This document shows, one piece after another, positions 2,655 through 10,156 of a stretch of 64,000 bases of DNA. The stretch's first letter is position 1. Every line of letters begins with the position of its first letter. Source of the stretch: a virus (taxonomy: Duplodnaviria; Heunggongvirae; Uroviricota; Caudoviricetes). The stretch is taken from the IMG/VR virus record IMGVR_UViG_3300042391_000580, one strand, 5' to 3'. Under the pieces are notes generated by a model. It ran no database searches, was not told the DNA's origin, and saw nothing but the letters and a program-made list of their open reading frames with translations. Position numbers and translations under genes: made by a program.

Positions 2655-3017
2655 ATGAAACTATTTAAAAAAGAATTAGTACTAACTCAACAAGAAGAGG
2701 GTATAGTAAATGTAATTAAGAGCATGACTTTTAGGAAAGATTGCCTTATTGAAATAAACCCCGAAACTATGGACTATTTACTATCCATAGAGGACTTGCA
2801 GTATTTTATATTGATAGATTCAGAGGGTGTACAAATATCAAACCATAGCTTTTTTATAACACGAAGATTAAGGTCTAATGTTGTAGATAGTATAAAGAGT
2901 ATAGTAAAAGCTGAAACCTCTGCTAGAAGACAATTAAAAGCAGATAGTATTTTTAACAACGAACTAGAATTATTAACAAAAATAAATAAAGCAATAAATA
3001 ATGGCAGAAGTAAATAG
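2655..3017 (+). CDS. hypothetical protein
   Basis: ORF track; promoter motif TACCTTTG 21 nt upstream. Confidence 0.5.
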   Translation: MKLFKKELVLTQQEEGIVNVIKSMTFRKDCLIEINPETMDYLLSIEDLQYFILIDSEGVQISNHSFFITRRLRSNVVDSIKSIVKAETSARRQLKADSIFNNELELLTKINKAINNGRSK

Positions 3018-3495
3018 TGTGCTTAAAGTATCTGACTTAGTAAAGTTCAGCGAGAAAGATTACCTAGAGACAAAGAAAACTCTAGCTGTAATGGACGAAA
3101 TGGTTCGAGAGTATGTAAAAGGCACAGAGAGCCTAGATGCACTAGAAGACCTAAAGAGAAGATTTAATGGTTACTTAGTTTACCTAGCCGGTTATTATAG
3201 TAAGGTTAGATGCTTTCGTGAGAACTTCGAGTTCTTGGAGGCACAGAGAAAGCGTATAAAGAGTGAGGCGATAGAGGACTTAATAAGACATAGTGAAGAG
3301 AAAATCTCTCAATCTGCTGCTGAAAAAGTAGTATATTCACACCCTTATTACATTGAGCGTATTACCTTGTTAGAGCAGTTGAAACGTTTCTTCTACCTAG
3401 TGGACTTATCTTATCAAAACTATCAAGATGTACAAAGAAGTATCTATCAATCAATCTCTGTCTTAGCAAAAGAAAGGCACTCAACAATATCGTAG
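3001..3495 (+). CDS. hypothetical protein (164 aa)
   Basis: ORF track. Confidence 0.5.
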   Translation: MAEVNSVLKVSDLVKFSEKDYLETKKTLAVMDEMVREYVKGTESLDALEDLKRRFNGYLVYLAGYYSKVRCFRENFEFLEAQRKRIKSEAIEDLIRHSEEKISQSAAEKVVYSHPYYIERITLLEQLKRFFYLVDLSYQNYQDVQRSIYQSISVLAKERHSTIS

Positions 3496-3496
3496 T

Positions 3497-3925
3497 ATGG
3501 GAAGTGTAATAGATTTTATAGAATGTCCACGATGTAAAAGCGAAGATTGTTTCGATGATTACTACTACAAAACCGGAGAAGAGTATATAAGCTGTCCGGA
3601 TTGTGGCTATAATAGGTCTTCTTTTATCAAAAGAGATGATGAGGGTAATATGTTTAAAATAGATGAAGATAAAGACTTTGCTATTGATAATGTAGTAAGA
3701 GAAGAAACTTTGTTAGAAGAGCCTTATTGTGCCTTTATGATAAGGTACGAGGATGGTGTAGGTTCGGGGGGAGCGATCCCAACAAAAGAGGAGTATGATA
3801 TTTTTGTATCAGATATTGTGTCAATTACAAATCAGCCAGACCACAAAATGGAAGAGGTAACAATCAGTAGGTTTGTTGATGGGGAGATTAAGAAAGAAAC
3901 AATTTGGGGACAGACAAAAAAATAA
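3497..3925 (+). CDS. zinc-ribbon protein (CPRC...CPDC)
   Basis: N-terminal CxxC-X18-CxxC pair in translation. Confidence 0.5.
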   Translation: MGSVIDFIECPRCKSEDCFDDYYYKTGEEYISCPDCGYNRSSFIKRDDEGNMFKIDEDKDFAIDNVVREETLLEEPYCAFMIRYEDGVGSGGAIPTKEEYDIFVSDIVSITNQPDHKMEEVTISRFVDGEIKKETIWGQTKK

Positions 3926-3928
3926 GCT

Positions 3929-4291
3929 ATGACTTTAGAAAGACAATATAATAATTTCTTACACGAAAACCCAAACTCAAAGTTTTCGTTTAATGAATGG
4001 AAAGAGTGGCATGGTAATCAAATCAAGCAACAATTAGTTAGTATGATGAGAGCAGATGAAGAGTTAGGTCTATATGAGGAAGTACATGAAGATAACACTG
4101 AGAAGTGGAGAAATAACCCATTACTTATTGATGAAATGGGGCAATATAATTTTCCAAGACGTAGAATGTATAGTGAAGAAGAGTTTAAAGAGTTAGTATA
4201 TCACATGGTTGGTGCATTAGCTAACGCTAATAATATGACATTTAACGGAGCTATACTTGATGAATTTTTTAACAAATTTAAAAAGAAATAA
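3929..4291 (+). CDS. hypothetical protein
   Basis: ORF track. Confidence 0.5.
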   Translation: MTLERQYNNFLHENPNSKFSFNEWKEWHGNQIKQQLVSMMRADEELGLYEEVHEDNTEKWRNNPLLIDEMGQYNFPRRRMYSEEEFKELVYHMVGALANANNMTFNGAILDEFFNKFKKK

Positions 4292-4296
4292 GATTA

Positions 4297-4434
4297 TGAA
4301 AGTAGTTTATATGGAACAGACACTAAAGATGATTGCTAAATTAGAAGGTGTTGCAGAGGCAAAAAAGTTAGAGGCAGAAGGAGAGATAAAGTATGTAGGA
4401 GATACTCCTTATTTATTAATTATAAAAGAATAGT
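4297..4434 (+). CDS. small hypothetical protein (45 aa, MKVVYMEQTLKMIAKLEG...)
   Basis: own translation; fills otherwise empty gap between packed genes; below track cutoff. Confidence 0.3.
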
Positions 4435-4437
4435 AGT

Positions 4438-4704
4438 ATGATACTAGTAGATGGAAGACATGAGTACGATTACTCTTTAGAAGATGATAACGTACATATA
4501 TTAAGATATTCTGATAACGGCTCTTGGACATACCCTAAAGAGGTAGCTATGCAAGTTACAGACGATGGTAATGGACTAATAATAAAGCTCAGTGAAAAAG
4601 GAAGGATTGATTACTCAGAGGCAGAGATGTTACTGATACTTTTAAAATTAATTAATACAGAAAAAACTACTTACGAGGTAGTAACACAAAAAGAAAAACT
4701 ATGA
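4438..4704 (+). CDS. hypothetical protein
   Basis: ORF track; ATGA overlap with next ORF. Confidence 0.45.
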   Translation: MILVDGRHEYDYSLEDDNVHILRYSDNGSWTYPKEVAMQVTDDGNGLIIKLSEKGRIDYSEAEMLLILLKLINTEKTTYEVVTQKEKL

Positions 4705-5084
4705 AAAAGATTTTAATAGCATTATTATTAGTACTTGCAGTATCAACCGGATACTCACAGACACAATTTAGAGAAATTTATTCTCAAACAGCCTTGGTGG
4801 ACAAAGATAATAAATTAACAAGAAAGGTTGGAGAAAATATCTTTATATTTAATTATGGAAGTGAGCCAGTAATCAAACTTTACATGTATGATGGAAGTGT
4901 CAGAATGTTCGATCAAATAACAGACAGACAGTATGGTAAGACAGTGGGGGGGATGACATTCCACTACGCTAGATATGAAGAGAGGTCACAACATTTTACT
5001 GTAACCGTACAACTATTTGATGATAAACAATATGGAGTTAGGCTAGTATTTACAGATGGTCAAACAATTCAGTTTATACATTAG
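4701..5084 (+). CDS. secreted protein with N-terminal signal peptide
   Basis: MKKILIALLLVLAVSTGYSQ signal-peptide-like N-terminus. Confidence 0.5.
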   Translation: MKKILIALLLVLAVSTGYSQTQFREIYSQTALVDKDNKLTRKVGENIFIFNYGSEPVIKLYMYDGSVRMFDQITDRQYGKTVGGMTFHYARYEERSQHFTVTVQLFDDKQYGVRLVFTDGQTIQFIH

Positions 5085-7159: not shown

Positions 7160-7362
7160 CAGAAGAAATAATAACACATAGAAAGACAAACAAGTAATTA
7201 GATGTAGAGGTATGAGTACACAGAGACTCTCTAGTTACAACACTACAAGAAGTGTTATGTTTGTTGAGTATGATAAGGATAGAAATAATCCCAATAGTAG
7301 ATGTCTCTTTGAAGAATCCGTTTGGTGTAAATACTAAACTATCTTTATCCCAATCTTGATGG

Positions 7363-7545
7363 ATGTGTTATTTTAATAAATTAAAAAGTATGGTAAATAA
7401 AGTAGCAGGAGTAATTCTCCTAGTTTTCGGATGGTTATTCGGAACATTTTGGATTTTTAATCACATCAATGCTTGGGCTGGAATTGCAGTTGGTGTGTTA
7501 GGTTTAATAATTTCAGCAAATCAAATTAGTAAAAAATTAAAGTAA
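7363..7545 (+). CDS. small two-TM membrane protein (holin-like topology)
   Basis: two hydrophobic helices and charged C-terminus KKLK. Confidence 0.4.
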   Translation: MCYFNKLKSMVNKVAGVILLVFGWLFGTFWIFNHINAWAGIAVGVLGLIISANQISKKLK

Positions 7546-7550
7546 GAAAA

Positions 7551-8363
7551 ATGAAAAAAGTTTTAGCAGTATTTTTAGTGTTAGTAGTAGCAGTGGGTTT
7601 TACCTCTTGCGAAAGAGTTGCTCCAAACTATTATGGAGTGTTGATGGAAAATTATGGTAAGGATGGCAAGGATGACTATTCTAAACAACAAGGTAGAGTA
7701 TCTACAATTTCTCCGGGGACAGAGTTATTTCAAGTACCGGCATGGGAACAACGTGGTAAGTTTACTAATGATGAGGGACAAGACAGAACTTTACAAGTAA
7801 AAGCAGCAGATAACACAGCCTTTACATCTAAGCCGTTATATTCATATAAAGTAATTCAAACTAAAGTTGTAGATGTAGTATTCCAAAATTCTAGGTTAGG
7901 TTCTGGAGATGATTTTATGAATGCCTTACAAGACAATGTATTGGAGCCAAGAATCTATGATATTATAAAAGAAGCATCAAGAAGTTATACAACAGAGCAA
8001 TTAATGGCTAATGGTGGTTCATTAAGATTTGAGCAATACGTTCAAGATATAGTTACAAAAGAGTTTGAGAAAGCCGGTTTAGAATTAATTAGTTTCAGTT
8101 TAAACTTAGACTTCTCTAATAAAGTAAAAGCTAAGATTGACTCAAGAAACGAGGTAAATACAAATATCTCTGTTTTGGATCAGCAAATTGCAGAACAAAG
8201 AAAACGTAATGAATTGGAAGTTTTAAGAACTGAGCAAAATAAAATTAGAAGTGCCGGTATTACTCCACAAATATTACAAGAACAAGCAATTCGTAAGTGG
8301 AATGGTCATTTACCAACTACTTATGCAGGAGGTGGCTTACCATTTGTTAAGGCAGTAAACTAA
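7551..8363 (+). CDS. lipoprotein (270 aa) with C-terminal coiled-coil; possible SPFH-like
   Basis: lipobox VGFTSC after signal peptide MKKVLAVFLVLVVA. Confidence 0.5.
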   Translation: MKKVLAVFLVLVVAVGFTSCERVAPNYYGVLMENYGKDGKDDYSKQQGRVSTISPGTELFQVPAWEQRGKFTNDEGQDRTLQVKAADNTAFTSKPLYSYKVIQTKVVDVVFQNSRLGSGDDFMNALQDNVLEPRIYDIIKEASRSYTTEQLMANGGSLRFEQYVQDIVTKEFEKAGLELISFSLNLDFSNKVKAKIDSRNEVNTNISVLDQQIAEQRKRNELEVLRTEQNKIRSAGITPQILQEQAIRKWNGHLPTTYAGGGLPFVKAVN

Positions 8364-8901
8364 TAAAAAATAACCTGTACCCCCGAAAAACTCGTATTTA
8401 AAGATAAGCAGGTTAGCTCTTATATAAAGGGGTATTAGAATAAGAGCAAAGGTGGTGTACCCAACCCGAAATGGGTGCTATTGGTCTCTGAAGAAAAGGG
8501 AACGCTTGTGAGTGGCAGTACATAACTCTCAAAAATAGCTAAGCTGTGTAAAGCACCAGATCTGATAAACTGTGTGAAGCTATGGGTTAAACATTGAATA
8601 CCTTTGTAAGAGAACCGTTATCTGCACCTTTTAGGTAGTAGAGAGCATACGTCATACTTCCATAAAGATACTATCAGTAATGGTAGATGTGTTGTTCCCT
8701 TGAGAAAGGAATGGTTAATAAAGAGATTAGACTTAATTGTTTGCTATCTACAACACAAATGAGTTCTCAGCAAGTAGTTATGAGATTCGAGCCTGCAAAG
8801 TTCTTTGAAGTAACTATGTGACCCTACTCTTGGTCCGGCTACGTAAGCTGATGCCGCTTACATGAAAGAGGGTGCTAAATTTTAATTAAAATAAATATAA
8901 A

Positions 8902-9075
8902 ATGAAAAAGATTTTCTTTTTAATGGCTATTATTTTAGCCTTTAGCGTAACAAGTTGTAAACAAGCTAGTGAAGTAAATTCAGATGCAACAACAGATTCA
9001 ACAGCAGTTCAAGTTGATTCAAATGGTGTAGACACAACAAGTGTTGATACTACTGCTTTAGATACAGTTAAATAG
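8902..9075 (+). CDS. small secreted lipoprotein (57 aa, T/D/V-rich) embedded in RNA island
   Basis: MKKIFFLMAIILAFSVTSC lipobox; below track cutoff; own translation. Confidence 0.35.
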   Translation: MKKIFFLMAIILAFSVTSCKQASEVNSDATTDSTAVQVDSNGVDTTSVDTTALDTVK

Positions 9076-9248
9076 TATTTAAGGATCGAGGCTTCTTCCT
9101 TTGAATGAAGCTACGCTACCGAAATGATAAGTGCCCTCACACGAGGGATTTTTAAAGAATGTTTTGGGTATGTTGGAAGGGGAAACAAGCACTGTGATCA
9201 GTGTGGCATAGAGTTGAGAGTCCGGATGTCAAAACTCTTTTAAGTCCT

Positions 9249-9341
9249 TGAGGGTTCGAGTCCCTCTACCTAATCGAAATAGTTTGTTGATGTATTATTG
9301 AATTTTGTTTGGACGGGAGTTCGATTCTCCCCACCTCCACA
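9249..9341 (+). ncRNA. ssrA: candidate tmRNA acceptor piece (T-arm GGGAG-TTCGATT-CTCCC + 3' acceptor strand CACCTCC-A) of a permuted two-piece ssrA
   Basis: close to E. coli tmRNA 3' end (UUUCGGACGCGGGUUCAACUCCCGCCAGCUCCACCA vs UUUGGACGGGAGUUCGAUUCUCCCCACCUCCA); pairs with GGGGGUG at 9437 with G3-U70. Confidence 0.4.
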
Positions 9342-9436
9342 AGAGTTTCCTTGAACTATAAACAAGGTGGTGGAGTCGCTGAGAAATCAGAGACCTAACA
9401 GTTTGAGGGAGCGTTCTGTTTAAAAACGTAACAATA

Positions 9437-9576
9437 GGGGGTGACTGGTTTTGACAGCAATCTAGTAGGTAGTAAGTAGAACTAATTTCAAATTTAAACG
9501 ACAACGTTTACCAACTTGGTGGGGTGCAAAGAATTGCAGCTTAACCACGCCTAGGGAGAGCGACATCTCCCTAACT
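9437..9576 (+). ncRNA. ssrA: candidate tmRNA coding piece: 5' tRNA-like strand GGGGGUGACUGGUUUUGAC, tag-like ORF ending GCA GCU UAA (..RIAA-stop) at 9542-9544, post-stop hairpin TAGGGAGA/TCTCCCTA
   Basis: 5' end resembles tmRNA consensus GGGGNUGAUUCUGGAUUCGAC; tag region shares AAACGAC...GCAGCUUAA with E. coli ANDENYALAA coding sequence; lies downstream of its own T-arm, implying permutation. Confidence 0.4.
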
Positions 9577-9650
9577 GGTCCTATAGCTCATTCGGTTAGA
9601 GCAACTGACTCATAATCAGTAGGTGCTTGGTTCGATTCCAAGTGGGACCA
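9577..9650 (+). tRNA. tRNA-Met (anticodon CAU; elongator type, could alternatively be tRNA-Ile2/lysidine)
   Basis: hand-folded cloverleaf: acceptor GGTCCTA/TGGGACC (one G-U), D-stem GCTC/GAGC, anticodon stem ACTGA/TCAGT with loop CTCATAA, T-stem CTTGG/CCAAG loop TTCGATT, discriminator A; CCA not encoded. Confidence 0.85.
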
Positions 9651-9913
9651 CTTAGCAAGGCATAAACGATAAGGAATACTCGTCACAGGTTTATGTTGAG
9701 TTGCAGACGGGCCGAAATGCTTACGGTTAACAAGGCTTAACTCATAAAGTCTAGAGAGCAAAATCTAACGAGTGACTGATGGAAAGACATCAACATGGGA
9801 AAGTAGCAGATAAGGTCGCCCCTGAACTGTGAGTGGGACTAATGTGACGGTCAATCGTAAAGGCTCAAGGTACGTAACAAGTAGTAGTTGGTTGGAGTAA
9901 GTGACTTAGCATC

Positions 9914-9937
9914 GGGGGTTCGATTCCCCCCTTTTTT
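9914..9937 (+). terminator. terminator closing the RNA island; hairpin mimics a tRNA T-arm
   Basis: GGGGG-TTCGATT-CCCCC followed by C TTTTTT. Confidence 0.5.
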
Positions 9938-9958
9938 ACAAACTAAAAATTATATAAA

Positions 9959-10156
9959 ATGTCAGTATTTAAAGTGTCTTTTATGGGAACTCGAATAGGA
10001 GAACATAATGGTAAGCCTAGTAAAATAAGATTTAAAGTGCAGGATGAAGAAGGTGAAGATTATTACAGTTCAGGGGGAGAACAAAAAATAGAATTTGATA
10101 TAGACTTAGAGTACAAGGATGTAACCAATTTAAAAATAACAGAAGTTTATGAATAA
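9959..10156 (+). CDS. hypothetical protein
   Basis: ORF track. Confidence 0.45.
   Translation: MSVFKVSFMGTRIGEHNGKPSKIRFKVQDEEGEDYYSSGGEQKIEFDIDLEYKDVTNLKITEVYE

Follow-up and report, generated by a model that had tools for sequence, protein, structure and literature searches.

The window analysed here is a 64,000-nucleotide (nt) stretch of viral DNA (Caudoviricetes; IMG/VR record IMGVR_UViG_3300042391_000580) in which an intergenic gap at positions 8364-8901 carries no long open reading frame (ORF). Within this gap, positions 8584-8878 of the plus strand probably encode a stable structured RNA that acts in trans and belongs to an uncatalogued family, here called the core RNA. We are highly confident that the element is a genuine structured RNA gene of such a family. 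Eight helices (Pa to Ph) make up its fold; the strands that join them are nearly invariant, while the peripheral hairpins vary freely. A preliminary description made from the sequence of the window had proposed that all 538 nt of the gap are a structured RNA of unknown class. As regards a structured RNA of unknown class, the proposal is borne out by a covariance model match at 8580-8884 and by helices backed by compensatory changes in two sequence sets. As regards the extent, about 295 nt (8584-8878) are widely conserved, but the gap is not one uniform unit, and its 5' 215 nt consist of optional cassettes. The core RNA has the following parts:

8584-8878, plus strand: the whole core structured RNA, from GGGUUAAACAUUGAAUACC to GAAAGAGGGUGCUAA (covariance model R1, blastn, a conserved 23-mer and pair counts)
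8584-8602, plus strand: helix Pa, GGG(U)/(A)CC closing the conserved loop UAAACAUUGA at 8588-8597 (covariation)
8603-8667, plus strand: helix Pb, a hairpin of variable length with the base UGUAAG/CUUCCA (covariation)
8671-8686, plus strand: helix Pc, CUAUC/GGUAG closing the loop AGUAAU (compensatory variants)
8688-8757, plus strand: helix Pd, UGUGUUG (8688-8694) with CAACACA (8751-8757), enclosing Pe and Pf
8695-8711, plus strand: helix Pe, UUCC/GGAA closing the loop CUUGAGAAA, within Pd
8712-8750, plus strand: Pf, a variable hairpin region within Pd
8757-8773, plus strand: near-invariant joiner AAAUGAGUUCUCAGCAA (conserved sequence)
8774-8817, plus strand: helix Pg, GUAGUUA/UAACUAU closing a variable hairpin (covariation)
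8820-8878, plus strand: helix Ph and tail, ACCC (8821-8824) with GGGU (8870-8873) (helix-keeping variants)

Conservation and distribution of the core RNA

Members of the family share seven sequence blocks in the order UAAACAUUGA, AAAGAUAC, GAUGUGUUG, UUGAGAAA, ACACAAAUGAGUUCUCAGCAAGUAG, GUGACCCUAC and GGGUGCUAA, joined by the helices Pa to Ph, and all seven are present in the window between 8588 and 8878. Conservation begins at AGG and ends after GCUAA regardless of the neighbours. The 23-mer ACAAATGAGTTCTCAGCAAGTAG (8755-8777) occurs exactly in 74 IMG/VR contigs of 6.6-306 kb, and a second, independent anchor (GTGACCCTAC, a gap of 38-68 nt, then GGGTGCTAA) retrieved 95 stretches, with 51 new ones among the 80 listed. 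In total the family comprises about 125 IMG/VR phage contigs and the Cellulophaga crAss-like phage phi14:2, which was the only isolate matched when the window copy and the best-scoring homologue were compared with 50,697 phage records by distant-mode blastn. Among 185,579 bacterial and archaeal species, each represented by one genome, a conserved 20-mer was found in 3 contigs, all from metagenome-assembled genomes. Taken together, these counts indicate that the family is widespread, that it is almost confined to phage contigs, and that almost all of the phages concerned are uncultured. Tandem copies of the core, two to three in number, occur at three loci (L027, at 3857-4541, L039 and L070; handles of this form denote single loci carrying the RNA), and there the AGGTTAAACATTGAA of the next copy begins 4 nt after the preceding GGGTGCTAA.

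Secondary structure and covariation

The eight helices were read from raw sequences with the homologues laid out block by block, and alignment A2, which holds 29 homologues with trimmed hairpin tips, gave covariance model R1 with 43 base pairs. Plain MAFFT and RNAalifold on full-length homologues had produced 803 columns and three helices only; this alignment was too gappy and was therefore replaced by the block-anchored reading and the model from tip-trimmed sequences. R1 has a single match in the window (139 bits, E 4.8e-39), and every one of the 78 sources searched with it yielded one full copy.

Pairing was scored in two sets, A3 and A4, the latter consisting of 47 distinct matches from second-anchor loci (three loci give two each) which were not used to derive the structure. 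The proportion of cells that are paired is 92.1% in A3 and 91.5% in A4, compared with 37-48% and 38-48%, respectively, when the 3' partners are slid by 1-3 columns. Changes on both sides of the pair are seen for 35 of the 43 pairs in A3 and 37 of the 43 in A4. The covariation scores are 0.266 (A3) and 0.355 (A4), against about 0.05 and at most 0.086 in the slid controls, and none of 500 shuffles reached the observed values in either set. G-U cells outnumber A-C cells by 140 to 64, which argues that the plus strand is the functional one. The core varies in length from 255 to 498 nt (median 330), with about equal numbers in each residue class modulo 3 (20/17/20), which indicates that the element is not coding; the median stop-free stretch in the homologues is 51 amino acids (aa), and insertions and deletions fall in the hairpin tips. 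The degraded protein-coding gene that the preliminary description had put forward as the alternative to an RNA is contradicted by these lengths and insertions.

The stem of Pa occurs as AGGU/ACCU, GUCG/CGAC, ACUCA/UGAGU or CUC/GAG around a nearly invariant loop. Pb differs strongly in length among homologues and is missing in the shortest members, and all seven of its modelled pairs change on both sides; next comes the conserved joiner CAUAAAGAUA (8661-8670). For Pc, with the variants CACAU/AUGUG, CCAGU/ACUGG, CUAAU/AUUAG and UCUAC/GUAGA, 95-99% of cells are paired, and this helix is enlarged to a three-way junction in phi14:2 and others. Pd hardly varies in the first set, and in set A4 its first pair appears as UA (24), CG (12) and AU (4). 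Pe is found as UCAC/GUGA, UUGC/GCAA, CAAC/GUUG and GGG/CCC. Within the joiner after Pd, AGUUCUCAGCAAG is nearly invariant even among homologues retrieved by a different anchor, and a pseudoknot between UGAGAA of the Pe loop and UUCUCA of this joiner is possible as judged from complementarity. Pg (GUAGUUA...UAACUAC) has 94-95% of its cells paired, and in set A4 all eight of its pairs change on both sides. Ph has the layout ACCC, a UAC bulge, UCUU/AAGA around a variable tip, and then the conserved 3' tail GCUAA, its 3' side reading AAGAGGGU; the helix is kept in the variants GUUUAUAU/AUAUAAAC, UCAUUA/UAAUGA and CAG.AUUAUCA/UGAUAAU.CUG. The UCUUAU of Ph has as pairing options two adjacent AAGA repeats, or AUAAAGA in the joiner between Pb and Pc.

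Searches among known RNA families

The comparison with all of Rfam that the preliminary description had proposed was carried out with cmscan and the 4227 families of Rfam 15. There was no match in the gap when the whole window was searched at gathering scores, none when 8200-10100 was searched at E<=10, and none in the gap homologues of phi14:2 and 16 other loci at E<=1. This result agrees with the preliminary description, in which no likeness to RNase P RNA, a group I or group II intron core or 6S RNA could be seen by eye. The invariant motifs of the core were not found in the published alignments or construct sequences of ROOL, GOLLD and OLE, nor printed in the literature, where the sole prior trace found is a remark on long non-coding RNAs (lncRNAs) of phi14:2 in one report; the 10,006 unnamed candidates of Fremin et al. 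2023 lie outside this comparison, and fragments of the family may be among them. The non-coding RNA (ncRNA) arrays of UG27 reverse transcriptases (bioRxiv 10.64898/2026.09.22.753630) were set aside because, according to the abstract, they reside in prophages and their ncRNAs are diverse in sequence, while the core family is conserved in sequence.

The homologue in phage phi14:2

When the phi14:2 locus is read directly, homology spans the whole 3' part of the gap, with the blocks GGUUAAACAUUGAA, UAGAUGUGUUGU, ACAACACAAAUGAGUUCUCAGCAAGUAGUUA, GUGACCCUACUCUU and GAAAGAGGGUGCUAA in the same order and separated by unalignable stretches of differing length. The covariance model matches 2908-3042 and 3066-3365 of this genome. 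In RefSeq NC_021806 gene g004 lies at 2194-2904 and g006 at 4602-4901, and between them there are only the RNA homologue, a 106-aa ORF (3590-3910, later dropped from RefSeq) and a transfer-messenger RNA (tmRNA) gene (4031-4500) about 700 nt downstream of the homologue. Infection by phi14:2 has been followed by strand-specific RNA sequencing (Drobysheva et al., bioRxiv 10.1101/2020.03.07.982082). That report describes the g004-g005 and g005-g006 junctions as lncRNAs of unknown function that are transcribed rightward and early, are abundant and persist, with transcripts above most protein-coding genes and without decay. The g004-g005 junction starts 4 nt before the homologue and therefore contains it, and the other junction contains the phage tmRNA. 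In the passages considered, the report gives no structure, family or conservation in other phages for these lncRNAs, of which the window copy is a diverged relative. In the older entry KC821624 three reverse-strand ORFs of 34-39 aa (gp007-gp009, 'hypothetical protein') lie over the RNA homologue at 3106-3431 (L001). They are annotation artefacts over an RNA gene, and were removed from RefSeq in June 2020.

Association with tRNA and tmRNA genes

A transfer RNA (tRNA) or tmRNA gene detected by ARAGORN lies within about 2 kb of the core in 42 of 108 distinct instances, and all 71 of these nearby genes are on the same strand as the core RNA. A tmRNA is nearby in 16 of the 108 instances, 13 times downstream, and most of these start no more than about 200 nt from the 3' end of the RNA; Rfam adds tmRNAs missed by ARAGORN at L033 and L046. 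At eight loci (L002, L015, L036, L055, L056, L057, L067 and L071) the 3' end of a tRNA or tRNA-like element is located 2-5 nt before AGGUUAAAC, and at L051 the tmRNA 5' end GGGGGUGA begins 4 nt after GGGUGCUAA. Shared processing is implied by the common strand and by the way in which the RNA directly adjoins the 3' ends of tRNAs and the 5' ends of tmRNAs. By eye, a -7 box of Bacteroidota type (TAnnTTTG) can be seen a few nt upstream of the core at L060.

An all-against-all comparison of ORFs within 4 kb on either side revealed no protein family that is consistently adjacent. One candidate partner (MKNIHVLPT...KIILTTDQDL) was rejected as a multi-copy phage family of unknown function at variable positions. 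Direct pairing with the tmRNA was likewise considered and dropped. The invariant UUCUCAGC of the core (8763-8770) has an 8-nt complement, GCUGAGAA, in the spacer of the window tmRNA (within 9371-9400), and GCUGAGAA is also present in L010. By eye, the complement is found neither in the phi14:2 tmRNA nor in the viewed part of the L051 tmRNA, and the match is therefore treated as chance.

Several of the loci also contain what may be called tRNA shells (L002, L048, L093, L104, L015, L071, L042, L073 and L060). In these the acceptor stem (AGTCAGG/CCTGACT), the D-arm (GGCGGAATTGGTAGACGC) and the T-arm (ACAGGTTCGAATCCTGT) are constant, and the region of the anticodon and variable arm is swapped for unrelated inserts of about 25-90 nt. 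Up to four shells occur per locus (as in L048, minus strand, at 8064, 8356, 8576 and 8830); they share the strand of the core RNA and in many cases directly adjoin it. Only a few are called by ARAGORN, as tRNA-Tyr, and none was found in the window.

The 5' part of the gap

Most homologues show no conservation of positions 8371-8583, which are made up of three cassettes. Each cassette recurs at few loci, counted as 3-7 other distinct ones, and is placed at fixed offsets from the core:

8371-8447, plus strand: cassette Z, three interleaved helices (structure read from few sequences)
8457-8532, plus strand: cassette Y, hairpin GUACCCA/UGGGUGC, with conserved AUUGGUCUCUGA..GGGAACRCUUGUGAGU..AACUCUCAA
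8535-8583, plus strand: cassette X, hairpin AUAGCU...AGCUAU, abutting the core at offset -49 (or -48) in the window and six other loci

The helices of Z are ACCUG (8373-8377) with CAGGU (8409-8413), CCCC (8380-8383) with GGGG (8429-8432), and GCUCU (8416-8420) with AGAGC (8443-8447). This cassette is common only to L010 and L048, abuts the core directly in L048, and has offsets of -78, -161 or -210. Y is common to L010, L017, L023, L061, L062, L068 and L130, always ends at the core or at X, and has an offset of -54 to -59 beside the core and of -104 with X between.

The 5' 215 nt thus described are optional structured add-ons, either domains at the 5' end of the core transcript or small RNAs processed together with it. 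It is quite conceivable, though we would not favour it, that Z, Y, X and the core are each small RNAs in their own right and not parts of one long RNA with 5' domains. In favour of separate RNAs, the combinations differ and each cassette is able to abut the core (Z in L048; Y in L017, L062 and L068; X in L003, L020 and L051), and in L020 a -7 box of Bacteroidota type (TATATTTG, identified by eye) stands just upstream of X. On the other hand, the cassettes are joined with spacers of 0-3 nt and always in the order Z-Y-X-core, as in domains of a single transcript, and no processing signal is evident between them.

Neighbouring genes and conserved modules

The window belongs to a crAss-like phage. 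Three giant ORFs of 1859-2469 aa lie on its minus arm, and the plus arm with the gap also carries ribonucleotide reductase, DNA polymerase and exonuclease. The gap and its surroundings hold the following features:

7551-8363: lipoprotein gene, 270 aa, SPFH/band-7-like, whose stop codon borders the gap on its 5' side
8364-8901, no strand assigned: ORF-free intergenic gap (read from the sequence and the ORF listing)
8902-9075, plus strand: 57-aa ORF with a lipoprotein signal (MKKIFFLMAIILAFSVTSC), between the core RNA and the tmRNA cluster, its ATG bordering the gap
9087-9147, plus strand: module V, a conserved leader directly 5' of phage tmRNA genes (CGAGGC..GCTACGCTACCGAAATGATAAGTGCCCTCACACGAGGG), ending in a hairpin and a U-run
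9282-9544, plus strand: permuted tmRNA (RF04321, 64.1 bits)
9577-9650, plus strand: tRNA-Met (RF00005, 69.5 bits; ARAGORN)

The longest ORFs inside the gap have 39 aa (8413-8532, minus strand) and 44 aa (8687-8821, plus strand), so the gap is indeed free of larger reading frames on both strands, as had been stated. The statement that it lies immediately upstream of the tRNA/tmRNA cluster has to be corrected, because the 57-aa ORF and about 200 nt more intervene before the permuted tmRNA. The product of the 270-aa gene is named 'lipoprotein' in PHROGs and band 7 or HflC-like in related phage records, and a homologue lies no more than 4 kb from the core RNA at five other loci. Small ORFs with signal peptides are found 3' of the core RNA in L010, L018 and L023, where the ORF is diverged and has the same type of signal as the 57-aa ORF.

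Module V has the look of a conserved leader or processing element of tmRNA genes. At L068 the tmRNA 5' end (GGGGGTG) follows it without a break, and the module stands 3' of the core RNA in L009, L046, L049 and L064, to which a motif scan adds L003 and L085. A further conserved non-coding stretch, module W (ACTACAAGAAGTGTTATGTTTGTTGAGTATGAT ... TCCCAATCTTGATGGATGTGT), occupies 7242-7374 of the window, in an ORF-poor stretch at 7190-7362, and holds a -7 promoter box of Bacteroidota type (TATGTTTG, 7256-7263). W is directly upstream of the core RNA in L009, L013 and L043, and in L048, L072 and L073 it precedes other cassettes. Possibly W serves as promoter and leader for a whole unit composed of a 60-aa ORF, the lipoprotein gene, the RNA and the tmRNA. 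The tmRNA locus itself (9179-9930) has conflicting calls of a permuted tmRNA: that of ARAGORN (9250-9821) engulfs tRNA-Met, which the Rfam call does not reach, and a T-arm-like GGGGGTTCGATTCCCCC with a T-run at 9914-9930 matches the tmRNA 3' end (RF00023 positions 346-363).

Interpretation and alternative explanations

We propose that the core RNA would be transcribed together with its neighbours in a polycistronic precursor of stable RNAs and released by host nucleases, with RNase P cutting at the 5' end of a downstream tRNA or tmRNA and RNase Z or a similar enzyme at the 3' end of an upstream tRNA. It would then fold into a compact tertiary core, possibly locked by the pseudoknot between the Pe loop and the joiner, and act in trans. 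Its invariant single-stranded nucleotides could form a binding or catalytic site for a conserved component of host translation, and candidate targets are the ribosome, tRNA or tmRNA, or their processing or defence nucleases, as suspected for ROOL and GOLLD. That the target is related to translation is a tentative suggestion. It is somewhat more speculative that the RNA adds to GOLLD and ROOL a third class of large structured phage RNAs, independent of both, in virulent Bacteroidota phages, with a core that is a new ribozyme or a dedicated binder of tRNA, tmRNA or the ribosome.

A number of points weigh against this interpretation. The folding energy is not better than that of dinucleotide shuffles: the z-scores of the minimum free energy are -1.2 and -0.1 for the plus and minus strands of the whole gap, -0.2 for the core and -0.2 for the 5' part. 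Folding energy was therefore discarded as evidence, and the case rests on the comparison with other genomes. The same values qualify what had been said about local hairpins. All three that had been named exist, at 0-1 nt from the positions given, namely TAACCTG (8371-8377) with CAGGTTA (8409-8415), which is the first helix of cassette Z, ACCCA (8459-8463) with TGGGT (8472-8476), which is the hairpin of cassette Y, and GTAAGC (8843-8848) with GCTTAC (8856-8861), which falls in the variable tip of Ph; such hairpins are not above chance. Sets A3 and A4 were fitted to the covariance model, which inflates the percentage paired; compensatory changes are also visible in the raw, unfitted sequences. 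The blastn match between the window gap and phi14:2 is a single stretch of 105 nt with 74% identity, the identification of g005 with the ORF at 3590-3910, and thus its coordinates, is a deduction, and expression of the window RNA is presumed from its sequence relationship to the phi14:2 homologue. In 66 of the 108 instances ARAGORN detects no tRNA or tmRNA within about 2 kb; many of these loci are truncated, and ARAGORN misses aberrant genes. Both strands of the candidate pseudoknot are invariant, also in the second set, so that it is suggested by invariant nucleotides only. The ends of the RNA are placed according to the limits of conservation and the abutting tRNA and tmRNA genes, and action in trans on translation, tRNA or tmRNA is proposed from genomic context.

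There is a small chance that the core is a ribozyme or RNA cofactor acting on the neighbouring tRNA and tmRNA precursors, of an RNase P-like, elbow-binding or T-box-like kind. Its strict co-orientation with these genes, which it often abuts, and its invariant single-stranded nucleotides would fit such a role; moreover GAAAGAGGGUGC resembles what we take to be the GUGAAAGGGUGC of the RNase P specificity domain, and the UGAGA in the Pe loop presumably fits the T-loop pattern. These likenesses are however short and out of order, neither RNase P nor T-box models match at permissive thresholds, the host already supplies RNase P, and in 66 of the 108 instances no tRNA or tmRNA was detected nearby. 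A self-splicing group I or II intron, or another mobile ribozyme that has spread among phages, is very improbable. The architecture is ribozyme-like in its invariant joiners and freely variable peripheral stems, the family is scattered over very different phage contigs, and CAUAAAGAUAC and AGUUCUCAGCAAGUAG are superficially like what we assume to be the S and R elements of group I introns. Yet no intron model of Rfam matches, the R-like and S-like strands follow each other in the wrong order and take part in local hairpins, and the flanks are not halves of a conserved gene but tRNA 3' ends, promoter-like sequence, cassettes, tmRNA 5' ends and unrelated ORFs. The accumulation of the phi14:2 region as an abundant and persistent RNA also speaks against an intron.

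That the RNA is a cis-acting leader, attenuator or terminator of the downstream gene is just as improbable. The core does lie between two genes of the same strand, and in the window its last helix is followed by a U-rich run (GCUAAAUUUUAAUU), but the item downstream varies by locus (tmRNA, tRNA, tRNA-like elements, unrelated ORFs or a second copy of the core), the length of 255-498 nt far exceeds that of known leaders, and the phi14:2 region accumulates above messenger RNA levels and persists. We give practically no credence to a decayed protein-coding gene or to an element acting as DNA, such as an origin, a packaging site or a promoter array. The gap is AT-rich with many small inverted repeats, and the 44-aa ORF overlaps the core; against this, indels of any length occur in the hairpin tips and lengths are even modulo 3, paired positions change together while joiners are fixed, G-U cells exceed A-C cells, and the strand is always that of the neighbouring RNA genes. 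A diverged member of GOLLD or ROOL, in place of a separate class, is very unlikely as well. The setting is the same (phage-encoded, tRNA-adjacent, large, with ornate and variable peripheral stems), and the conserved 3' and variable 5' parts are GOLLD-like (PMC12286853), but cmscan gives no match, the motifs are absent from the published alignments, and the core, with its median of 330 nt, is much shorter.

Significance

Few large structured RNAs have invariant cores, and every one found to date has revealed new biochemistry, as with the ribosome, RNase P, introns, tmRNA and the nanocages of ROOL and GOLLD. If the reading as a third class of large phage RNA is correct, the RNA would, together with phage tRNAs and tmRNA, sustain translation or defeat host defences that target tRNA, and the stackable 5' cassettes and insert-bearing tRNA shells would point to a modular RNA toolkit of phages. 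Cellulophaga baltica and phage phi14:2 offer a cultured model for the family, in which the homologue region is known to be abundantly transcribed. A fold backed by covariation, more than 100 variants, the linkage to tRNA and tmRNA and this cultured model make the role of large ncRNAs in the tRNA islands of lytic phages directly testable. At about 300 nt, the core RNA is also a compact target for structural biology. The family also matters for annotation, as spurious reverse-strand ORFs were placed over the phi14:2 RNA locus in KC821624.

Comparison with known systems

Bacterial RNase P gives no match to the core at E<=10, and the likenesses seen by eye are short strings out of order. Group I introns have no Rfam match here either; the R-like and S-like strings are reversed and form the local hairpins Pc and Pg, and a split exon is not seen, the flanks of the core being unrelated between loci. 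The tmRNA matches of ARAGORN and Rfam start at 9179 or later, so that the core lies outside them, and many core loci have no tmRNA. With the tRNA and tmRNA arrays of phages the core RNA shares strand, transcription unit and direct abutment, but it has no cloverleaf, no tRNA-like domain recognised by ARAGORN or Rfam, and no tag reading frame.

The closest parallels are ROOL and GOLLD. ROOL (RF03087) is encoded by phages, often next to tRNA islands, is several hundred nt long with many helices and pseudoknots, can be very abundant, and has no known protein partner and no known function (PMC12286853). GOLLD (RF01998) is encoded by phages and prophages beside tRNAs, sometimes with embedded tRNAs, is conserved in its 3' part and variable in its 5' part, and is expressed more strongly in lytic growth; both form RNA-only cages (PMC12286853). 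ROOL is common in prophages and bacterial genomes, whereas the core RNA is almost absent from the 185,579 species genomes, and GOLLD often exceeds 800 nt, compared with 255-498 nt for the core; the covariance models of the two families do not match it. Like GOLLD, the gap RNA is better conserved towards its 3' side and variable towards its 5' side, and like both it is a large structured phage RNA next to tRNA islands for which no protein partner was found, encoded on about 125 contigs and accompanied by tRNA or tmRNA in 42 of 108 instances. By this comparison, the core RNA forms a new class, found in a kind of setting that is already known.

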